26,980 bases of DNA from Candidatus Bipolaricaulia bacterium (GCA_046758705.1 JBHIAT010000031.1:1-26980), one strand, 5' to 3'. Counted from the stretch's first letter, positions 9,503 to 18,687 are shown. Numbers and translations are program-made. The notes: generated by a model from the sequence alone, not told the origin.

Positions 9503-10225
9503 ATGAATATGGTCGAACCGACGGACCGATCGATCCGAACCGTGAGGTTAAGAATCGATATCCTGACCCTGTTCCCGGAGATGCTGATCGGTTTCTTCAG
9601 CATGGGCGGACTGGCCCGAGCTCAGCAGTGTGGCCTGATCGAAATCCATCTCCACCACCTCAGGGAGTTCGCGACCGGCAAGCACAGACAGGTCGACGAT
9701 CGACCCTACGGCGGAGGCCCGGGGATGGTCCTGAAAGCCGAGCCGTTCTTCCGGGGGGTGGAGCATATCAAAGATCAGGTTCCGGGGACACCTCGGGTGA
9801 TTCTGTTCACGTCTCGGGGGAGGCGCTTCAATCAAACGCTCGCTAAGGAGTTGGCCCAAGAAGGCCACCTGATCCTACTCTGTGGCCGGTATCAAGGGGT
9901 CGATGAGCGGGTGACCCAGATCGTCACCGATGAAATCTCCATCGGTGACTTCGTACTCAGCGGGGGGGAGGCCGCCACCGCGGCCGTGGTCGAGGCGACC
10001 GCTCGGCTGATTCCCGGTGTTGTCGGAAACTGTGAGTCGGTGACGCGCGATTCCTTCTACGCGGAGTCCATGCTCGGCCCGCCTCAATACACCCGACCCC
10101 AACACTTCAGAGACTATGAGGTGCCTGAGGTGTTGCTTTCCGGAGATCACGCACGGATCGAGGCGTTTCGTCGGGAAAAAGCACGGGAAAAGACCCGACG
10201 GAATCGACCCGATCTGTTGGAGTAA
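9503..10225 (+). CDS. trmD: tRNA (guanine37-N1)-methyltransferase
   Basis: TLFPEM, VDDRPYGGGPGMV, CGRYQGVDER, SIGDFVLSGGE, PQYTRP, VPEVLLSGDH. Confidence 0.95.
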   Translation: MNMVEPTDRSIRTVRLRIDILTLFPEMLIGFFSMGGLARAQQCGLIEIHLHHLREFATGKHRQVDDRPYGGGPGMVLKAEPFFRGVEHIKDQVPGTPRVILFTSRGRRFNQTLAKELAQEGHLILLCGRYQGVDERVTQIVTDEISIGDFVLSGGEAATAAVVEATARLIPGVVGNCESVTRDSFYAESMLGPPQYTRPQHFRDYEVPEVLLSGDHARIEAFRREKAREKTRRNRPDLLE

Positions 10226-10262
10226 GAGCGGGAGCCTGTTCATATGTCCGTATACGATTACG

Positions 10263-10892
10263 ATGATGGCAAACCTCTATATCGGGCTGCTTCACCATCC
10301 GATACAGAACAGGCGGAGTGAGATCGTGACGACGGCGATCACCACCATCGACGTCCACGACATCGCCCGGACCGCCAGGACCTACGGGGTTGTGGGCTAT
10401 CACATTGTGACCCCGCTCGTCTCTCAGCAGCAGATCGCATCCCGGATCGTCGATTACTGGACGAAGGGAGGCGAGTCTGAAGACCTGACCCATCGTGGGG
10501 AGGCGTTGGCGTTGATCGAGATCGTTGATCGGTTTGAGATCAGTATGGCACAGATTGAGGCGGCCGAGGGCGCCGTTCCGCTCACCGTTGGGACATCGGC
10601 CCGAGATCTCTCGGATCTGGGAGTGCCGACGGTTGAATATCAGGAACTCAAGCGTATAATGGAAGGCGAACGACGGCCGATCTATCTGCTCTTTGGAACC
10701 GGTTGGGGGATCGCTGATGAGCTGTTGGAGAGATTTGATTGTTTGCTGCCACCGATCCGTGGGTACCCGTGTGAGGATGGGGATTCGTATAACCATCTCT
10801 CCGTCCGTGCGGCAGTGGCGATCATCCTGGATAGGTTGCGAGGTGGACCGAGTCTGTCGCGGGACGATCGAGGTGGAGAAAGGTCGGCATAG
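10263..10892 (+). CDS. SPOUT RNA methyltransferase of the Tm1570-like family (Methyltrn_RNA_4)
   Basis: [55 protein letters not shown]. This family typically lies next to trmD. Start trimmed from 10116 to avoid overlap with trmD. Confidence 0.85.
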
Positions 10893-11926: not shown

Positions 11927-12555
11927 TTTCCCCCGAGCGGGTTCGATTCGATCGGGAGATCCGTGCCAAGCAGGGGATCAGGCGACTTGCCGGGTTGGAT
12001 GAAGTGGGTCGGGGCGCACTCGCCGGGCCGGTGATCGTCGGGTGTGTGATGTTCCGGAACCTGGAAGCGGTGGGGGTTGAAAACCAGGATCTGCTGCTTG
12101 AGATCGACGATTCGAAGCGGTTGAGGCCGAGACATCGAGAAAGACTCGCTCGGGCGATTCGCGCGCATGCCGATTGCGGGATCGGCCGGGCAGGCTCCGA
12201 GGAGATCGATGCAATCGGCATTGTAGCCGCGACCCGACTTGCAGCCCGCCGAGCGGTGCGTGTACTCCTTATCCGTCCCGAACTGCTCCTGACCGACAGA
12301 GGACTGAAGGTGGACCTCGGGATTGAGGAACGGGAGTTGGTCGGGGGCGATTATCGCTCCCTGTCGGTCGCCGCCGCCTCGATCCTGGCCAAGGTCGATC
12401 GTGATGGGTGGATGAGGTGGATCGGTCGTCGATATCGGAGTTACGGATTCGCCCGCAACAAGGGCTATGGAACCGCCGAACACCGAGCGGCGATCACCGT
12501 CTACGGTCTCTCCCCCCTCCATCGCCGCAGTTTCTGTCGTGTGAACGTGGCTTGA
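11914..12555 (+). CDS. rnhB: Ribonuclease HII
   Basis: GLDEVGRGALAGPV, DDSKRL, GGD, SVAAASILAKVDRD, NKGYGT, HRRSF. Confidence 0.95.
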   Translation: MSAVVSPERVRFDREIRAKQGIRRLAGLDEVGRGALAGPVIVGCVMFRNLEAVGVENQDLLLEIDDSKRLRPRHRERLARAIRAHADCGIGRAGSEEIDAIGIVAATRLAARRAVRVLLIRPELLLTDRGLKVDLGIEERELVGGDYRSLSVAAASILAKVDRDGWMRWIGRRYRSYGFARNKGYGTAEHRAAITVYGLSPLHRRSFCRVNVA

Positions 12556-12580
12556 CAGAGGGATAGGATTGCCCTATAAT
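12552..12580 (+). promoter_or_regulatory. Perfect-consensus sigma70 promoter for the envelope operon
   Basis: TTGACA (12552-12557, overlapping the rnhB stop), 17 nt, TATAAT (12575-12580). Confidence 0.85.
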
Positions 12581-12766
12581 GAGGAAAACGTGCCAAATAT
12601 ATTGAGAAAATGAAGAGATACCTTGGTACAAGGCGGACAGATAAGGGGGTGAGTCATAGCGGATCGCAGGTCGAGGTAGCGAACTGAAGGCCCTTCCCGA
12701 TGCAGGCGGTCCAACGGGAGTTCGATCTTTGTCTTTTTGGGATCTTTAAATAACAAGGAGGTCACA

Positions 12767-13807
12767 TTGAGAATAACGAGGAGGTTAAAAGGAGGAAGGG
12801 CGGTAATGCTGACGTTGGCCCTGCTGTTGGCCATCCTATGGTATCCGCACTCAGCCTTCTCTCAGGAGGCGCTGTTCGTTGATGTCCCAATCAATCACTG
12901 GGCAGCCGACGCCCTACAGTTTCTGGCGGATCGGGGGATCATCACCGGGATGCCCGACGGCACGTTTCAGGGAGATCGCTCCCTCAGCCGATATGAGGCA
13001 TCGGTCCTCGTCTTTCGAGCAGTTCAGTTCGGCCTCGATGAGTTGATTGTCACCGCCCAGGATTTGGAGACCCTCGAAAACCTCACCGTCCGACTCGCCG
13101 ACCGTCTCCGAGACATGGGCCAGGATGTCGGGGCGATGCAGCAAGTGTTGGATGAAGCGCGTGCTACCATCGAAAGCAACTTCGACGATCTGCTCTCGGT
13201 CAAGGATCTATCGGTGGAGGCGTTTCGAAAAGCACTTGATGTGGAACGCCGGGTCGCCGGGGTGACAGCGTCTGAGGCGATCCTCGACGATGTCAACGTC
13301 CTGATCGGCCCGCTGGAGCGGAACGTATCGGATCTGATCGATCTCAGCGGGCAGTTGCTCGAGGATACCGCTGATAACGAAAGAAAAATCGCTATCTTGG
13401 AGTCCGATCTCGAACCGCTGAACGAACGGGTAGACACGCTGGAGTCCGACCTGACGCTCGCCACACAGAGTCTCCGGACAAACACCTCACGGGCCATCGT
13501 GACGAACCGCCAAGACATCATAGCCAACCAACAGGACGTCGCAACGCTCCAGACCACGGTCTCGGATCTGGAGTCCCGGGTGTCCAACAACCAGACCGAT
13601 CTCGCCGCCACCCGAGACCTGCTCGATTCGGTCGCCGGGAGGGCCGGGGAGGCGCTGCGGACCGCCACGGAACTGAGCGACCAAGTGGCCGCCCTAGGCG
13701 ACCAAGTGGCCGCCCTGGACGTCGCTGCGGTCAGCAGTCGGGTCAACACGAACCGGACTTTCGCGATCATCGCGTTGCTCGCTGGCATAGCTGGGATCTT
13801 CACGTAA
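12767..13807 (+). CDS. SLH domain + long coiled-coil + C-terminal hydrophobic tail protein (Omp-alpha-like envelope tether)
   Basis: TTG start after SD AAGGAGGT (alternative ATG 12806). Signal peptide ending AFS-Q; SLH motif FVDVPINHWA...GIITGMPDGTFQGDRSLSRYEA; heptad-patterned middle region; ends FAIIALLAGIAGIFT. Confidence 0.85.
   Translation: MRITRRLKGGRAVMLTLALLLAILWYPHSAFSQEALFVDVPINHWAADALQFLADRGIITGMPDGTFQGDRSLSRYEASVLVFRAVQFGLDELIVTAQDLETLENLTVRLADRLRDMGQDVGAMQQVLDEARATIESNFDDLLSVKDLSVEAFRKALDVERRVAGVTASEAILDDVNVLIGPLERNVSDLIDLSGQLLEDTADNERKIAILESDLEPLNERVDTLESDLTLATQSLRTNTSRAIVTNRQDIIANQQDVATLQTTVSDLESRVSNNQTDLAATRDLLDSVAGRAGEALRTATELSDQVAALGDQVAALDVAAVSSRVNTNRTFAIIALLAGIAGIFT
13677..13718 (+). 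repeat. 21-nt tandem duplication (one coiled-coil heptad)
   Basis: GCGACCAAGTGGCCGCCCTAG followed by GCGACCAAGTGGCCGCCCTGG, encoding DQVAALG-DQVAALD. Confidence 0.85.
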
Positions 13808-13919
13808 TTAGTGAAATTGCCTAATCTAAAGGGGAGGTGATAGTAGGTACGAGTAGCAAGTCGGGTGAACGCTCACATCACCAGTGTAAAATATTCACAC
13901 ATTAAGGAGGTAACCTCAC

Positions 13920-14888
13920 ATGCGAGGTAAGTTTTTGGTTGTCCTCTTCGTCGGATTGCTGGTCGCTTCTACGCCAGCGTGGGCTGTAGAGTTTGATGCA
14001 TCGGGGGATTTCACGTCCACTTTAAATGTCACTCAAAGCCCAGCAGCACCAATGGCTTTTGGAACGACCGGGAGTGCTGAGTTCTCTGCAAGTGCTTCAG
14101 TTGGAGAAGACGCTCGGTTTGTCGTCGATGTAAGCCTTGAATTCGATTTTGATGCTTCCGTGGGTCAAACCACTGAATCACCGTTAGAATTTGATTTCAG
14201 TGAGGCCTACGTCATCCTGTTTGAGAACTCCCGGTTTGGACTGTCGAGCTTCGACACTGATGGGACCCCGGCAGAAATCTTCGAAAGTCTCGGGGAAGGA
14301 AGCTCGGACTTCGATGGATTTGGGTATTCGCTAGCCATGGATCCGTTTAGTATTGACTTGTCGGTCGATCTCGCCCAGACAGCAGAAGCCGCTCCTGCGG
14401 CAGATCCTATTGGTCCTCAGGTCGACGTCCTTGTCGGAGGCGGGTTCGGTCCGGTCGCGGTGACCCTTAATGCGATCGACCTAACGAGTGTTCAACCAGC
14501 GGGTCTAACAGTGAATGCGACAGCTTCGGTCGAAATGCCCATGGGACCGGCTAACGTCTATGCGGGAGTCAACGCGACGCTGACCCCCGCCCCGGCGGCC
14601 TTTTTCGCTCTCGTCGGTGCGACCATAGATATCGGTTCCTCGGTCACTGTGGAGTTCACCACCGACGACGAAGGTGACGGGACCGGTGTAACTGACCTAG
14701 GCGTCTCGGCGGACTTCAGCTTCGGAGCCATCGATCTCAGCGCTGAGGCGACCGGGTTAGCAGGCCCCAATGCCCCCCTCTCGTGGGAAGTCACCGTGTC
14801 TACGGCCTTGAGTGACGTGACCACCCTCTCGTTAGCCGTGTCGGATGAGGGTGGAGCTGTCGACGTCGAGGTTGAGACGAGTTTCTGA
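13920..14888 (+). CDS. Putative major outer-membrane beta-barrel/porin-like protein, paralog 1
   Basis: SD TAAGGAGGT. Signal peptide ending AWA-VEF; porin-like start VEFDASGDF; amphipathic strands throughout; very acidic; ends VEVETSF with terminal Phe. Confidence 0.7.
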   Translation: MRGKFLVVLFVGLLVASTPAWAVEFDASGDFTSTLNVTQSPAAPMAFGTTGSAEFSASASVGEDARFVVDVSLEFDFDASVGQTTESPLEFDFSEAYVILFENSRFGLSSFDTDGTPAEIFESLGEGSSDFDGFGYSLAMDPFSIDLSVDLAQTAEAAPAADPIGPQVDVLVGGGFGPVAVTLNAIDLTSVQPAGLTVNATASVEMPMGPANVYAGVNATLTPAPAAFFALVGATIDIGSSVTVEFTTDDEGDGTGVTDLGVSADFSFGAIDLSAEATGLAGPNAPLSWEVTVSTALSDVTTLSLAVSDEGGAVDVEVETSF

Positions 14889-14922
14889 TGATGTAGGACT
14901 AGGCAACTAGGACAGGATAGAG

Positions 14923-14954
14923 AACCCCGAGCTCTCACAGCTCGGGGTTTTTTT
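14923..14954 (+). terminator. Rho-independent terminator after paralog 1
   Basis: AACCCCGAGCT-CTCAC-AGCTCGGGGTT followed by a T-run. Confidence 0.92.
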
Positions 14955-15031
14955 ATTAACCGCCCTCACGACATGCTAAACCCGTAGCTCTCCGGGAAGG
15001 ATAGCTGATGGGGTAGAAGGAGGTTATCTCC

Positions 15032-16180
15032 ATACAAAGTAAGTTTCTGGCTGTCCTGTTCGCTGGGTTGTGGATCACTTCTGTCACTTCTTTAACACCG
15101 GCGTTGGCCGTAGAGCTTGATGTATCGGGATATCTCACGGCCACATTCGAAATGGAAGTTGGAGCGCAAACTTTCTCCACGGCCAGTGAAGTTGGGTTCA
15201 CTTTAGATGCTCCACTCGGGGAAGACGTTCGGTTGTTCGCCAGTATAAACGGTTCTGCTGATACTGACCCTACTTCACAGACACCCGGAACGCTAGCGTT
15301 CGAATTCGATGAGGCCTACCTCATCCTGTTTGAAAACTTTCGTTTGGGTCGGTCGAGCTTCTTCAATGACGGGACCCCGGCAGAAATCTTCAGCAGCCTT
15401 GGGGAAGTAGACTCGGACTTTGATGGATTTGGGTATTCGCTGGCCATGGGCCCGGTGAATGCTGACCTATCGGCCGATTTCGCAAACGGCGTGCAACCCC
15501 CTGAGATCGACGTCCTTGCCTCAGGTGAGTTCGGTCCGGTCACGGTGACCGTTAACGGTGTCGATCTCTTGTCATCGACTCAAACGGCTCCATCAGTAAA
15601 TGCGACCGCCTTCCTCGAAATGCCCATAGGACCGGCCACGGTCTATGCAGGGGTCAACGCGCAACTGACCGACCCCGACCCCAGCAACTCTCCTAACGAG
15701 ACTCACGTTGATCCAGGCACATTCTTTACCGTTGGTGCGACTCTAGATTTAGAGTTCGCTGCCTCCATCACCGTGGAACTCTCAACCGACGCCTTCGGTG
15801 ATGGTGTAGCCCTGGACGATACAGGAGCCTTGGTCCCTGACACTGACCTAGGCGTCTTGTTGGATTTCAGCTTCGGAGCCATCGATCTCAGTGCTGAGGT
15901 GATCGGGATATTGGTTCCACCTATCCTATGGGAGGTCACCGCATTTACAGGCTTGAGCGATATCATCAGCCTCTCGGTAACCCTGGATGATCTCGGACTG
16001 ATCGCAGTGGATTTCAGCTTTGGGGCCATCGATCTCAGCGCTGAAGTGGACGGGATATTGTTTGATCTTCCCTTGTGGGAAGTCACCGCGTCTATAGACT
16101 TGACCGATAGCACCAGCCTCTCGGTAACCCTGGATGATCTCGGACTGATCGAAGTAGCGATTGAGGCGAGTTTCGGATGA
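15032..16180 (+). CDS. Putative outer-membrane beta-barrel protein, paralog 2 (ATA start, internal duplication)
   Basis: SD AAGGAGGT (15017-15024), 7 nt, then ATA. IQSKFLAVLFAGL aligns with MRGKFLVVLFVGL of paralog 1. Shared blocks EAYxILFEN, DGTPAEIF, SDFDGFGYSLAM, DFSFGAIDLSAE. Confidence 0.7.
   Translation: MQSKFLAVLFAGLWITSVTSLTPALAVELDVSGYLTATFEMEVGAQTFSTASEVGFTLDAPLGEDVRLFASINGSADTDPTSQTPGTLAFEFDEAYLILFENFRLGRSSFFNDGTPAEIFSSLGEVDSDFDGFGYSLAMGPVNADLSADFANGVQPPEIDVLASGEFGPVTVTVNGVDLLSSTQTAPSVNATAFLEMPIGPATVYAGVNAQLTDPDPSNSPNETHVDPGTFFTVGATLDLEFAASITVELSTDAFGDGVALDDTGALVPDTDLGVLLDFSFGAIDLSAEVIGILVPPILWEVTAFTGLSDIISLSVTLDDLGLIAVDFSFGAIDLSAEVDGILFDLPLWEVTASIDLTDSTSLSVTLDDLGLIEVAIEASFG
15861..16154 (+). 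repeat. 147-nt (49-aa) tandem duplication within paralog 2
   Basis: Copies begin TGGATTTCAGCTT at 15861 and 16008. An identical block CAGCCTCTCGGTAACCCTGGATGATCTCGGACTGATCG occurs at 15967 and 16114. Confidence 0.9.
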
Positions 16181-16275
16181 TGTGAGCGGATTCAGGGGTT
16201 TGGGGAGTGGCCGTACCCGTTGACGGGTTCCCTGACCCTGTGCTATCTTTAAGGTATAAAGGTATAATCATCATC

Positions 16276-18687
16276 ATGAACGCCACCAAGATGCTCAGTC
16301 TCCCGGCTCTCAAACGGGCGCTGACCACCCTGTTTATCTTCACCCTGCCGCCGTTGATCTACTTCGGGAACACCTCCTACGGGTATACCAAGGCGATCTT
16401 CGCCCTGGTCGGTATCTCGATCCTGTTGGTGGTCTGGGGGATCGAGATGGTGATGGTGAACGGAAGAGGGAAGAGGAAAGGGAAGGGGAGAAGCAACGGA
16501 TATCGGTTCAACAAGACGGAGCTGTTTCTGCCCGCGCTGCTGCTGATCCTGGCGCTGACGGTCTCGGCGGTGGTCAATGCGAGCTTCGGCAATGCCAACC
16601 TCGGCTTGGGTCTTGAGAGTCTGGGTCTGATCGTCTACTACCTGCTGCTCTACCTGGTGGTGGCGAACCTGGTGACCCGTCGCAGCGATCTGCTGCTCAT
16701 CCTCGGCAGCCTGTTCGCGTCGGCCGTGCTCGTCTCCAGCTACGGGCTGCTCCAGTACTACGGCTTCGAGATCTTCCCCTATCCCTTCCGGCGCATCTCC
16801 GGGGGGCCGAGTGCGATGATCTCGACGTTGGGCAACCGGAACTTTCTCGCCGGCTTTCTCGCGTACCTGGTGATCCCGTCGTTGATTCTGCTGTTCAGCG
16901 TCAGACGGAGGATCTCGAAGGCATTGGTGCTGCTCGGCGTCACTGTGATCTACACGACGTTGTTCGCCACCCACGCACGCGGGCCGTTGATGGGGTTGAT
17001 CGCTGGGGGGATCTTCTTCATCGGCGGGCTGGCCTTCTTGAAGGTTCGGAAACCGTTGCGGGTCAATTGGAGGTGGACGACCGCGCTCATCGTCTTGCTG
17101 ATCGGGGCCACCGCCCTGTTCTGGAGCCCAAACTCGCTGAACCGAAGCCGCAGGTCGGCCACTCAGGAGATCACTACCGCCTTCGACGCCGGTTCGGCCG
17201 ATACGAGAACCCGATTCTACGACTGGTGGGTCACCTGGGAGATGATCAAGGACGAGCCGATCATCGGGATCGGCCTCGGCAACTACAAGCGCGATTTTCT
17301 CTATTACAAAGCTCAGTTCATCGATACGGAGCGTGGAGCGCCCTATGCTGACTACTTCATCCACAAGGCCAATCAGGCACACAACGAATACGTGCAGGTG
17401 TGGGCAGAGACGGGGACGTTGGGTCTGCTAGCCACCGCCGCCGTCGTACTGCTGTTGTTTCGCACCAAGATCCGCGATGCGATCAAAGCGAAGTCCGAGC
17501 AGGATCGACTGGTCCTCTGGGGGTTGCTCTCCGGGGTCGTTGCCCTATTCGCTCACGCGACGGTCAGCTTTCCGTTGCACCTGCCCGCCTCCTCGCTCGC
17601 CTTGGTGGTCATCCTCGGGCTGCTTCACTCCAGATACTTCATCGGTGAGCGGTATTCGGTCGAACTGAGCCGCCGTGGGGCCGGAGTGATCGCCGTCTTG
17701 CTCTTGTTCATAGCGGTCTCGGTGAGTTGGTTCGCCGCCCAGGACTTTATCAGTAATACCTACTTCAAGCGGGGGCGCGACCATTTCCTCGCGGGCGATC
17801 TGGCGGCAGCACAGCGTGACTACGAGGAGGCGCTCGACCTCGAATTTCAGCCGTCGGATCTGCTGTTTGCATTGGGTGTGATCGAGAGACGCAAGAATAA
17901 TCTTGAGGCAAGTGAGTTTTACTTCAACAGCTCTCTGGACGCGTTCACCGATGTTAACACATTCCTCAACCTCGGTCTGATCCAGCGAAAACGGGGCGAC
18001 CTCCAGGATGACCAGGCTCTGGCCCGAGAATACTATCTGGAGGCGATCCCCTACTTCGAACAGGCGATTGTCCTCGACCCCACTCACCTCGACGCGCGTT
18101 ATCTGAAGGCTCAGATGTTGCTGAAAGCTGGAGAGTTCGAGGCCGGGGCCGCGACATTGCAGGAACTCCTGGCCCGCGACCCTAGTTACGCCCGGGCCTA
18201 TATCGAGCTCGGCAACCTCTACCGGTTTCAGGCCAACCGTCACACCGAAGCCGGGAATCTCCAGGTCGCTGATGCCCTCCTGAAGGAGGCCACCGTCAGT
18301 TACCGCGAAGCGCTGAAGGTGATCGAAAGAAAGGTTCAGGATCTCCGTGAGCGATTCCAGGGAAGAACTCTAGCGCCCAGTGCATACAACCAGGTGATGG
18401 GGGAGATCGACTCGCTGGGGAGGATGTACGTGGACGGCCAGATCAGATTAGGGGACCTCTACGTCCGTCGGGCCGAGGTCACGGCCGATGCCGAAACCGC
18501 CACCGCCCGCCAGGATCGGGCGATCGCCAGCTACCGTGCCGCCCTGACGGCCGTCGAAGGCCAACTCCGGGACTTTCTCAGGCGTTACGAAGCAGGACGG
18601 TTGCGGCGCGAGGAATATCAAGCGGCTCAGGCAGACCTTGAGAAGACACGGGAGCGCATCCTGGAGCGGCTGGAAAGGTTAAAGTAA
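16276..18687 (+). CDS. O-antigen ligase / O-oligosaccharyltransferase-like (Wzy_C) membrane protein with C-terminal TPR repeats
   Basis: Many TM helices; YGLLQYYG, STLGNRNFLAG, ARG, WEMIKDEPIIGIGLGNY, QAHNEYVQVWAETGTLG; TPR-like helices after about aa 500. ATG 16276 preferred over GTG 16207. Confidence 0.85.
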   Translation: MNATKMLSLPALKRALTTLFIFTLPPLIYFGNTSYGYTKAIFALVGISILLVVWGIEMVMVNGRGKRKGKGRSNGYRFNKTELFLPALLLILALTVSAVVNASFGNANLGLGLESLGLIVYYLLLYLVVANLVTRRSDLLLILGSLFASAVLVSSYGLLQYYGFEIFPYPFRRISGGPSAMISTLGNRNFLAGFLAYLVIPSLILLFSVRRRISKALVLLGVTVIYTTLFATHARGPLMGLIAGGIFFIGGLAFLKVRKPLRVNWRWTTALIVLLIGATALFWSPNSLNRSRRSATQEITTAFDAGSADTRTRFYDWWVTWEMIKDEPIIGIGLGNYKRDFLYYKAQFIDTERGAPYADYFIHKANQAHNEYVQVWAETGTLGLLATAAVVLLLFRTKIRDAIKAKSEQDRLVLWGLLSGVVALFAHATVSFPLHLPASSLALVVILGLLHSRYFIGERYSVELSRRGAGVIAVLLLFIAVSVSWFAAQDFISNTYFKRGRDHFLAGDLAAAQRDYEEALDLEFQPSDLLFALGVIERRKNNLEASEFYFNSSLDAFTDVNTFLNLGLIQRKRGDLQDDQALAREYYLEAIPYFEQAIVLDPTHLDARYLKAQMLLKAGEFEAGAATLQELLARDPSYARAYIELGNLYRFQANRHTEAGNLQVADALLKEATVSYREALKVIERKVQDLRERFQGRTLAPSAYNQVMGEIDSLGRMYVDGQIRLGDLYVRRAEVTADAETATARQDRAIASYRAALTAVEGQLRDFLRRYEAGRLRREEYQAAQADLEKTRERILERLERLK

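Follow-up and report, generated by a model that had tools for sequence, protein, structure and literature searches.

The systems closest to the locus described here are proposed to tether the outer membrane to the cell wall, and they are built from either one chain or two. OmpM of Veillonella parvula (PDB 8bym, 8bys and 8bz2) is described as a trimeric 16-strand porin with a triple coiled-coil stalk (PMC10628300); in this protein, as in SlpA of Deinococcus radiodurans (PDB 7zgx; PMC9388160), the barrel is the C-terminal part of the chain that also carries the S-layer homology (SLH) domain and the stalk. In the Omp-alpha/Omp-beta system, a protein consisting of an SLH domain, a coiled coil and a hydrophobic tail has no barrel of its own, and the gene that follows encodes an exported beta-protein. 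A preprint reports this split system for Thermotogae, Bipolaricaulota and Fraserbacteria and states that CsaB adjoins its genes in Bipolaricaulota (Witwinowski et al., bioRxiv 10.1101/2021.05.31.446380); according to PMC10160955, Omp-beta and its operon are poorly conserved in Thermotogae. The earlier work of Engel et al. (1992) and Petrus et al. (2012) on Omp-alpha and Omp-beta is referred to as cited in these two sources. We analyzed a 26,980-nt stretch of DNA from Candidatus Bipolaricaulia bacterium (GCA_046758705.1, JBHIAT010000031.1:1-26980), hereafter the window, in which positions 12552–16180 contain three plus-strand genes, g1, g2 and g3. We consider it likely that a divergent bacterium of the Bipolaricaulia class here encodes its outer-membrane tether in two parts, in an operon of the split OmpM-like, Omp-alpha/Omp-beta type. 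The split system is already known for Bipolaricaulota, and the locus is a further member of it. New here are the small, hyper-acidic and Cys-free proteins g2 and g3, which have no detectable homologues, the longer rod of g1, a CsaB gene that is not adjacent, and the presence of LpxC. The features of the locus are as follows.

12552–12580, plus strand: sigma-70 consensus promoter, TTGACA-17 nt-TATAAT, with 12 of 12 consensus matches.
12587–12766, plus strand: putative 5′ leader of about 180 nt, read from the sequence with an inferred transcription start; AAGGAGG at 12755–12761.
12767–13807, plus strand: g1, Omp-alpha-like tether, 346 aa; TTG start 5 nt past AAGGAGG.
Parts of g1: signal peptide, aa 1–32; SLH domain, aa 37–78 (12875–13000); heptad rod, aa 89–326 (13031–13744); hydrophobic tail, aa 327–346.
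13920–14888, plus strand: g2, 322 aa, exported; probably a small beta-barrel of the outer membrane; ATG 9 nt past GGAGG.
Mature g2: 300 aa, Asp+Glu 47, Lys+Arg 2, Cys 0, isoelectric point (pI) 4.05.
14925–14954, plus strand: intrinsic terminator with a 9-bp G+C stem, a 5-nt loop and U7; −24.1 kcal/mol, z −7.08, none of 200 shuffles as good.
15032–16180, plus strand: g3, paralogue of g2, 382 aa from ATA 15032; GGAGG at 15019–15023; alternative start ATC 15026.
Mature g3: 356 aa, Asp+Glu 59, Lys+Arg 3, Cys 0, pI 4.05.
15861–16007 and 16008–16154, plus strand: 147-nt (49-aa) unit duplicated in tandem towards the C-terminus of g3, with 84% identity; the duplication also shows in the g2–g3 protein alignment.

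The promoter, the leader of about 180 nt, g1, g2 and the strong terminator form one compact unit. An earlier note on this DNA had described a perfect consensus promoter, a gene encoding signal peptide, SLH domain, coiled coil and hydrophobic tail, and directly after it a strand-rich, Phe-terminated exported protein; these three descriptions hold for the promoter, g1 and g2, respectively. The note had also placed a strong terminator last in the range 12552–16180. The terminator is real, and lies directly 3′ of g2, in the middle of the range and not at its end; a simple terminator scan had not listed that hairpin. The range does hold the g1-g2 unit, while its second half is taken up by the third gene, g3. 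Neither the 112-nt spacer between g1 and g2 (z −0.65) nor the sequence 3′ of 16180, after g3 (z −0.58), contains a significant hairpin.

g1 carries the clearest relationship to known tethers. Its signal peptide, MRITRRLKGGRAVMLTLALLLAILWYPHSAFS|QE, has a positive n-region and a cleavage-type site, AFS|QE. The SLH domain reaches 35 bits in Pfam against a cut-off of 20.8 (E 1.4e-8) and 38.9 bits in the genome-wide search, in which g1 was the sole SLH gene found (one match at E ≤ 0.01). The rod that follows comprises 238 residues with only two Pro, and the 3.5-residue hydrophobic periodicity remains in phase along its whole length (z 8.3, reached by none of 2000 shuffles); matches to Pfam coiled-coil families are sub-threshold. 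If the rod forms one continuous coiled coil, it would measure up to about 35 nm (238 residues × 0.148 nm). The tail, TFAIIALLAGIAGIFT, includes 15–16 hydrophobic residues, so that the chain ends in NTNRTFAIIALLAGIAGIFT, a hydrophobic helix and no barrel, as is also the case in 10 relatives from the same class and in a Pseudothermotoga Omp-alpha-like protein (L131). When a profile built from g1 and these 10 class relatives was compared with the PDB, it matched SlpA (7zgx, E 2.6e-29, profile positions 20–160) and V. parvula OmpM (8bym, E 7e-16, positions 34–140). The SLH domain and neck of g1 are thus homologous to the SLH domain and the start of the coiled-coil stalk of SlpA and OmpM. The resemblance extends to the proposed job, that of a wall-to-outer-membrane tether; the difference is that OmpM and SlpA carry their barrel in the same chain, whereas the g1 chain stops at a short hydrophobic helix and a gene of its own encodes the barrel candidate.

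The Pseudothermotoga protein (403 aa) shares with g1 the same four-part build, a similar length and 31% identity over residues 37–317. Unlike g1, it is not followed by a barrel gene, the next same-strand open reading frame (ORF) having no signal peptide, in line with the report that the operon is poorly conserved in Thermotogae. Compared with the Omp-alpha/Omp-beta system as a whole, the locus presents the same arrangement, an SLH-coiled coil-hydrophobic tail protein followed by the gene of an exported beta-protein, the genome has both SLH and CsaB, the two share their taxonomic group, and g1 is a detectable orthologue of the Omp-alpha-like proteins of the class.

For comparison with relatives we used 40 genomes, all of them of the same class only; the window's family stands alone among the 184 class genomes. 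The earlier note had suspected a Bipolaricaulota origin, and this fits: the SLH proteins of the relatives are 57–94% identical to records named Candidatus Bipolaricaulota, Bipolaricaulia, Acetothermia or "uncultured Thermotogae". The best named matches of Ffh were to Bacillota (51–59% identity), in a pattern-limited scan that is uninformative on taxonomy. The genes trmD, a PF09936 methyltransferase gene, rplS, lepB and rnhB around the locus are common to the window and relatives, and the conserved order trmD-PF09936-rplS ties the window contig to the class. The PF09936 gene, encoding a SAM-dependent (S-adenosylmethionine-dependent) RNA methyltransferase, lies between trmD and rplS at window positions 10116–10892 and likewise in four relatives' loci (L112, L115, L116 and L120), where the copies were recognised by sequence likeness alone.

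A match to the SLH-neck of g1 was present in 34 of the 40 same-class genomes. Among the 19 best relatives' loci, 15 have an ORF with a signal peptide next to the SLH gene, on the same strand and within 600 nt; two have none and two are too short. The pairing of genes that the two-part reading calls for is therefore conserved in 15 of 19 loci. In five of the extended loci the downstream proteins are 441–563 aa long and end in Phe; there are three tandem paralogues in each of the genomes G039, G003 and G027, and one each in G033 and G002. In G019, two proteins of 418 and 421 aa ending in FSA lie further downstream, and in G011 and G023 the SLH-rod-tail gene is not followed by a barrel gene. One of the G003 proteins (526 aa), modelled from a 45-row alignment, is predicted to fold with 24 long strands (predicted local distance difference test score, pLDDT, 82.2; predicted template modelling score, pTM, 0.78). 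All the Foldseek matches listed for this model in the PDB are outer-membrane barrels (ushers, LptD, porins and Occ channels; E ~1e-7), at low template modelling (TM) scores of 0.23–0.39. In public sources the G003 family comprises 237 proteins at E ≤ 1e-5, all "hypothetical", none with a Pfam family, and their records bear the same names (Bipolaricaulota, Bipolaricaulia or Acetothermia). The three tandem large-barrel paralogues that follow the SLH gene in G039, G003 and G027 (loci L109, L110 and L113) contain 6–9 Cys each.

By phmmer, the proteins that occupy this slot in the class form at least three unconnected groups, and neither g2 nor g3 can be linked to any of them. From these sequences and models, the slot after the Omp-alpha-like gene is read as holding barrels across the class, with sequences that turn over quickly. 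The locus in the window departs from the other Bipolaricaulia split loci in several respects. g2 and g3 have no sequence relationship to the barrels encoded behind the relatives' SLH genes, they are much smaller (300 and 356 aa as mature proteins, against 441–563 aa for the relatives' adjacent precursors), they are Cys-free, against 3–12 Cys in the relatives' adjacent proteins, and they are almost without Lys and Arg. The rod of g1 is about 150 residues longer than in the 10 class relatives, whose proteins have the same build within 168–245 aa; CsaB is not adjacent, and the genome has lpx genes.

The earlier note had stated that the barrel matches no recognised family, and every search agreed with it. 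g2 and g3, which are paralogues with 54% identity, matched just themselves and each other in a word-indexed search of 5.77e9 clusters. An exhaustive phmmer search of 1.84e9 representatives retrieved the same two and a third protein, P0003, a Cys-bearing tandem-repeat protein of 753 aa that was matched over residues 206–274 only and was judged spurious from its sequence. Relatives of g2 and g3 were not found in the 40 same-class genomes, and when a g2/g3 profile was run on the 184 class genomes, the other 183 reached at best E 0.0067 per genome, with no credible match. Five weak matches of the profile were inspected and proved to be ORFs without signal peptides. Scans of metagenome and genome contigs, with two peptide patterns each, did not reveal relatives either, nor did the PDB sequences. 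In Pfam, no family reaches its cut-off for g2 or g3: g3 has a Porin_4 match at E 0.0065 (16.8 bits, cut-off 27), and g2, which has no porin-family match, leaves a single trace, Beta-prism_lec, at E 0.058.

Several independent leads nevertheless point to a barrel. The signal peptide of g2 ends AWA|VEF, and the protein closes with ETSF, which gives it a Phe signature at the C-terminus. Both proteins have a beta-type hydrophobic moment (dyad, 170 degrees) far above that of shuffled sequences (g2, z 7.0; g3, z 6.5), against −1.3 to +1.1 in 12 other proteins of the window and 2.5–4.9 in seven barrel candidates of relatives, and strictly alternating segments number 11 in g2 (shuffle mean 5.9) and 17 in g3 (shuffle mean 7.8). 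For the ESM Atlas model of g2, which starts at residue 45, the nearest structures are DUF1302, Alginate_exp, Porin_4 and Campylo_MOMP clusters, and the model aligns with porin-type barrels at a TM score of 0.66–0.77 by query over about 260 residues. These porin-type families are its nearest structural neighbours and nothing closer: no Pfam cut-off is reached, there is no sequence relative in the PDB and the charge make-up of g2 and g3 is very different. In language-model features, the clusters nearest to g3 (0.94–0.96) that have any family belong to outer-membrane barrel families, including Porin_2, Opacity, OmpA_membrane and MOSP/Autotransporter. The genome also encodes BamA (POTRA and Omp85, 111.8 bits), with Skp adjoining. 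Taken as indirect evidence from sequences and models, these leads make a barrel the most likely fold of g2 (and g3), and a membrane barrel suits them better than a soluble sandwich. As g2 and g3 occupy the barrel slot and show every sequence sign of small barrels, the locus is read as a split OmpM-like tether, and the two-part tether put forward in the earlier note is supported by the architecture of g1, its homology to SlpA and OmpM, the gene pairing and the barrel signs.

The public gene calls for the two proteins, P0001 (14052–14888) and P0002 (15233–16180), start internally, at residue 45 of g2 and at residue 68 of g3 counted from the ATA. As these calls lack the signal peptide, annotation-based screens for exported proteins would miss both.

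In the mechanism that we propose, g1 would oligomerise into a parallel coiled coil, a trimer being expected by analogy with OmpM and with an AlphaFold2-multimer prediction for Thermotoga Omp-alpha. Its SLH end would bind a pyruvylated wall polymer or peptidoglycan, the rod would span the periplasm over up to about 35 nm, and the tail would sit in or at the outer membrane. BamA would insert g2 as a small barrel of roughly 12–16 strands; g2 would then be the main channel or structural component, and the tail of g1 may dock on it. Lying behind the terminator and having a non-ATG start, g3 may be a variant that is produced weakly or under certain conditions and that carries an additional unit of 49 residues. 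The basis on which g1 and g2/g3 might be regarded as dominant envelope proteins, as the earlier note had it, is the promoter.

That g3 is instead a decaying or silent duplicate, g1 and g2 alone being functional, is possible, and we lean against it. Its signal peptide, IQSKFLAVLFAGLWITSVTSLTPALA|VE, is encoded solely if translation starts at ATA 15032 or ATC 15026; the first canonical start, TTG 15068, would remove the n- and h-regions. The strong terminator lies 78 nt upstream of the ATA, no promoter was listed by the scan for 14954–15032, and the protein ends in ASFG and not in a terminal Phe. On the other hand, the frame is open over 382 codons, the signal peptide is intact, GGAGG stands 8 nt before the ATA, and this ATA aligns with the ATG of g2. 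Strain data come from DNA contigs of one study labelled hydrothermal vent metagenome, a possible source of this DNA: three of its runs cover the stretch, and a fourth has parts of a diverged strain; no RNA run is among the seven runs listed for the stretch. The contigs of the three runs all retain ATA 15032, as does a single low-depth contig of the diverged strain, and no indels appear among the listed differences to that strain. These differences, a small sample to which 17 more beyond the listing would have to be added, are five synonymous and six non-synonymous in g1, five and three in g2, and nine and six, the latter mostly conservative, in g3. They weakly favour g3 as a living gene.

Contigs of the metagenome runs break at the tandem duplication of g3; the duplicated 49 aa would add beta-strands to a barrel. 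A single contig of run X4, at a depth of about 4, shows that the diverged strain has 226 unlike letters in place of window positions 14696–14900, which comprise the last part of g2 and adjoining spacer sequence; this replacement may mark a hypervariable C-terminal part of g2.

Other results weigh against the split-tether reading as a whole. Concerning the fold, an hhalign comparison of g2/g3 with the downstream proteins of 14 relatives gave a probability of 1.2%, with a two-row query of low power, and phmmer links neither g2 nor g3 to the relatives' barrels. Since homology to those barrels is lacking, "Omp-beta-like" describes the position and predicted fold of g2 and g3, not their descent. 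AlphaFold2, run with mature g2 on the two-row alignment of g2 and g3, returned an unusable model (pLDDT 33.6, pTM 0.29), and the Atlas model of g2 itself has a pTM of 0.50 and a pLDDT of 0.59. Trp and Tyr are scarce in the mature proteins (1+3 in g2, 2+4 in g3) and basic residues are almost absent, which is unusual for porins; the Gly that follows Phe at the end of g3 belongs here as well. CsaB is not beside the operon, unlike what the preprint states for Bipolaricaulota. On the topology of g1, a C-terminal hydrophobic helix combined with a cleaved signal peptide is normally an inner-membrane stop-transfer anchor.

Some of these results would suit a different identity of g2 and g3. They would be acidic beta-proteins of an S-layer-like, beta-sandwich or beta-solenoid kind, secreted to cover the cell surface or to occupy the periplasm, and g1 would hold this layer to the wall. 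Extreme acidity is typical of S-layer proteins, and in mature g2 and g3 the 47 and 59 acidic residues face just two and three basic ones; Trp and Tyr are few for an aromatic girdle, AlphaFold2 finds no fold for g2, and the one Pfam trace of this protein is to a beta-prism lectin family. We think such an identity improbable. All neighbours of the Atlas model are porin-type barrels, the feature clusters nearest to g3 that have a family are barrel families, the dyad pattern of both proteins exceeds that of the relatives' confidently modelled barrels, the C-terminal Phe signature coincides with a BamA in the genome, and G003, a relative of the same class, has a modelled barrel in the same gene slot. 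As to the acidity, a "salt-in halophile" origin was rejected: the rest of the window proteins have pI values of 4.6–10.6 and 8–18% Lys+Arg, so the acidity of g2 and g3 is not proteome-wide.

The topology of g1 could likewise be read in another way, the C-terminal helix being a stop-transfer anchor in the cytoplasmic membrane that spaces the wall from it, and g2/g3 being independent porins that share the operon. Inner-membrane C-tail anchors classically combine a cleaved signal peptide with a hydrophobic helix at the C-terminus, as established for Sec stop-transfer; the tails of the relatives, of about 20–22 residues, are long enough for such an anchor, and G011 and G023 have the SLH-rod-tail gene without a neighbouring barrel. 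There is little probability in this arrangement, given that the tail of g1 in the window, with its 15–16 hydrophobic residues, is short for a stop-transfer anchor, that SlpA and OmpM, with which g1 shares a homologous SLH-neck, are tethers of the outer membrane, that the genome has an outer membrane but neither a single-chain OmpM nor any SLH gene besides g1, that 15 of 19 loci conserve a barrel gene as neighbour, and that Omp-alpha homologues are reported among the most abundant proteins of isolated togas in Thermotoga (PMC10160955).

Under the preferred reading, that of a split tether, the locus bears on how deep-branching bacteria held, lost and rebuilt their outer membranes. The lineage adds a case in which the rod is conserved and the barrel partner has been replaced or has diverged past recognition, a pattern as reported for Thermotogae; searches by barrel homology will miss such partners.

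The genome outside the window contains further envelope genes. A CsaB-type pyruvyl transferase (146.5 bits) is encoded on contig C85. On contig C11 (L217:4903-11274), bamA and skp belong to a cluster, bamA-skp-fabZ-lpxD-oxidoreductase-lpxA; LpxC (270.7 bits) is located at C7:7324-8109 (L216) and LpxB (267.8 bits) at C234:103-1143 (L214). LpxC was found in one of the 184 class genomes, this one only. Contigs C7, C11 and C31, the last being the contig of the window, have a G+C content of 0.586–0.593 and lie on the same side of the tetranucleotide spread of the bin; as contamination of the bin amounts to 4.69%, the membership of C7, C11 and C234 in the genome needs checking. The Pfam family of LptD gave no match in the genome, an uninformative result given that the control detects LptD in just two of 14 known genomes. 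In passages of the literature on the outer membrane and lipopolysaccharide (LPS) of Bipolaricaulota, lipid A genes of this phylum were not seen to be mentioned. Provided that the lpx contigs are indeed part of it, the genome would represent a member of the Bipolaricaulia class with lipid A genes, which would be useful for ordering the split of OmpM and the loss of LPS.

A speculative scenario, which we hold to be unlikely, would go further. The lineage would keep an ancestral state of the clade of Thermotogae and Bipolaricaulota, with an LPS-type outer membrane (lpxA, lpxB, lpxC and lpxD) and an already split OmpM, so that the tether would have been split before LPS was lost. The large barrel of other Bipolaricaulia, of about 24 strands, would then have been exchanged here for a new, small hyper-acidic family, and the short tail of the 35-nm rod may dock into this barrel, rebuilding OmpM non-covalently.

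The expression signals of the unit were compared with those of the whole genome. Counting spacers of 16–18 nt on both strands of the 3,698,413-bp genome, perfect TTGACA-N16-18-TATAAT pairs occur 44 times, against 0.38 expected from base composition. The organism therefore uses the sigma-70 consensus, and 12552–12580 is among its few ideal sites. Many of the 44 pairs precede genes led by GGAGG, which are candidates for highly expressed genes. The leader, 12587–12766, has no Rfam match at E ≤ 1 and does not fold better than shuffled sequences (z +0.55). Over 12400–16400, Rfam returned just NsiR1 (E 0.45), on the terminator hairpin, a match that we read as chance.

Next downstream of the locus, at window positions 16207–18687, is the gene of a membrane protein of 826 aa. 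This protein combines a Wzy_C (O-antigen ligase-like) domain (E 1.8e-21) with TPR repeats at the C-terminus, and it may act as a glycan ligase or polymerase in making a polymer of the wall or outer membrane.

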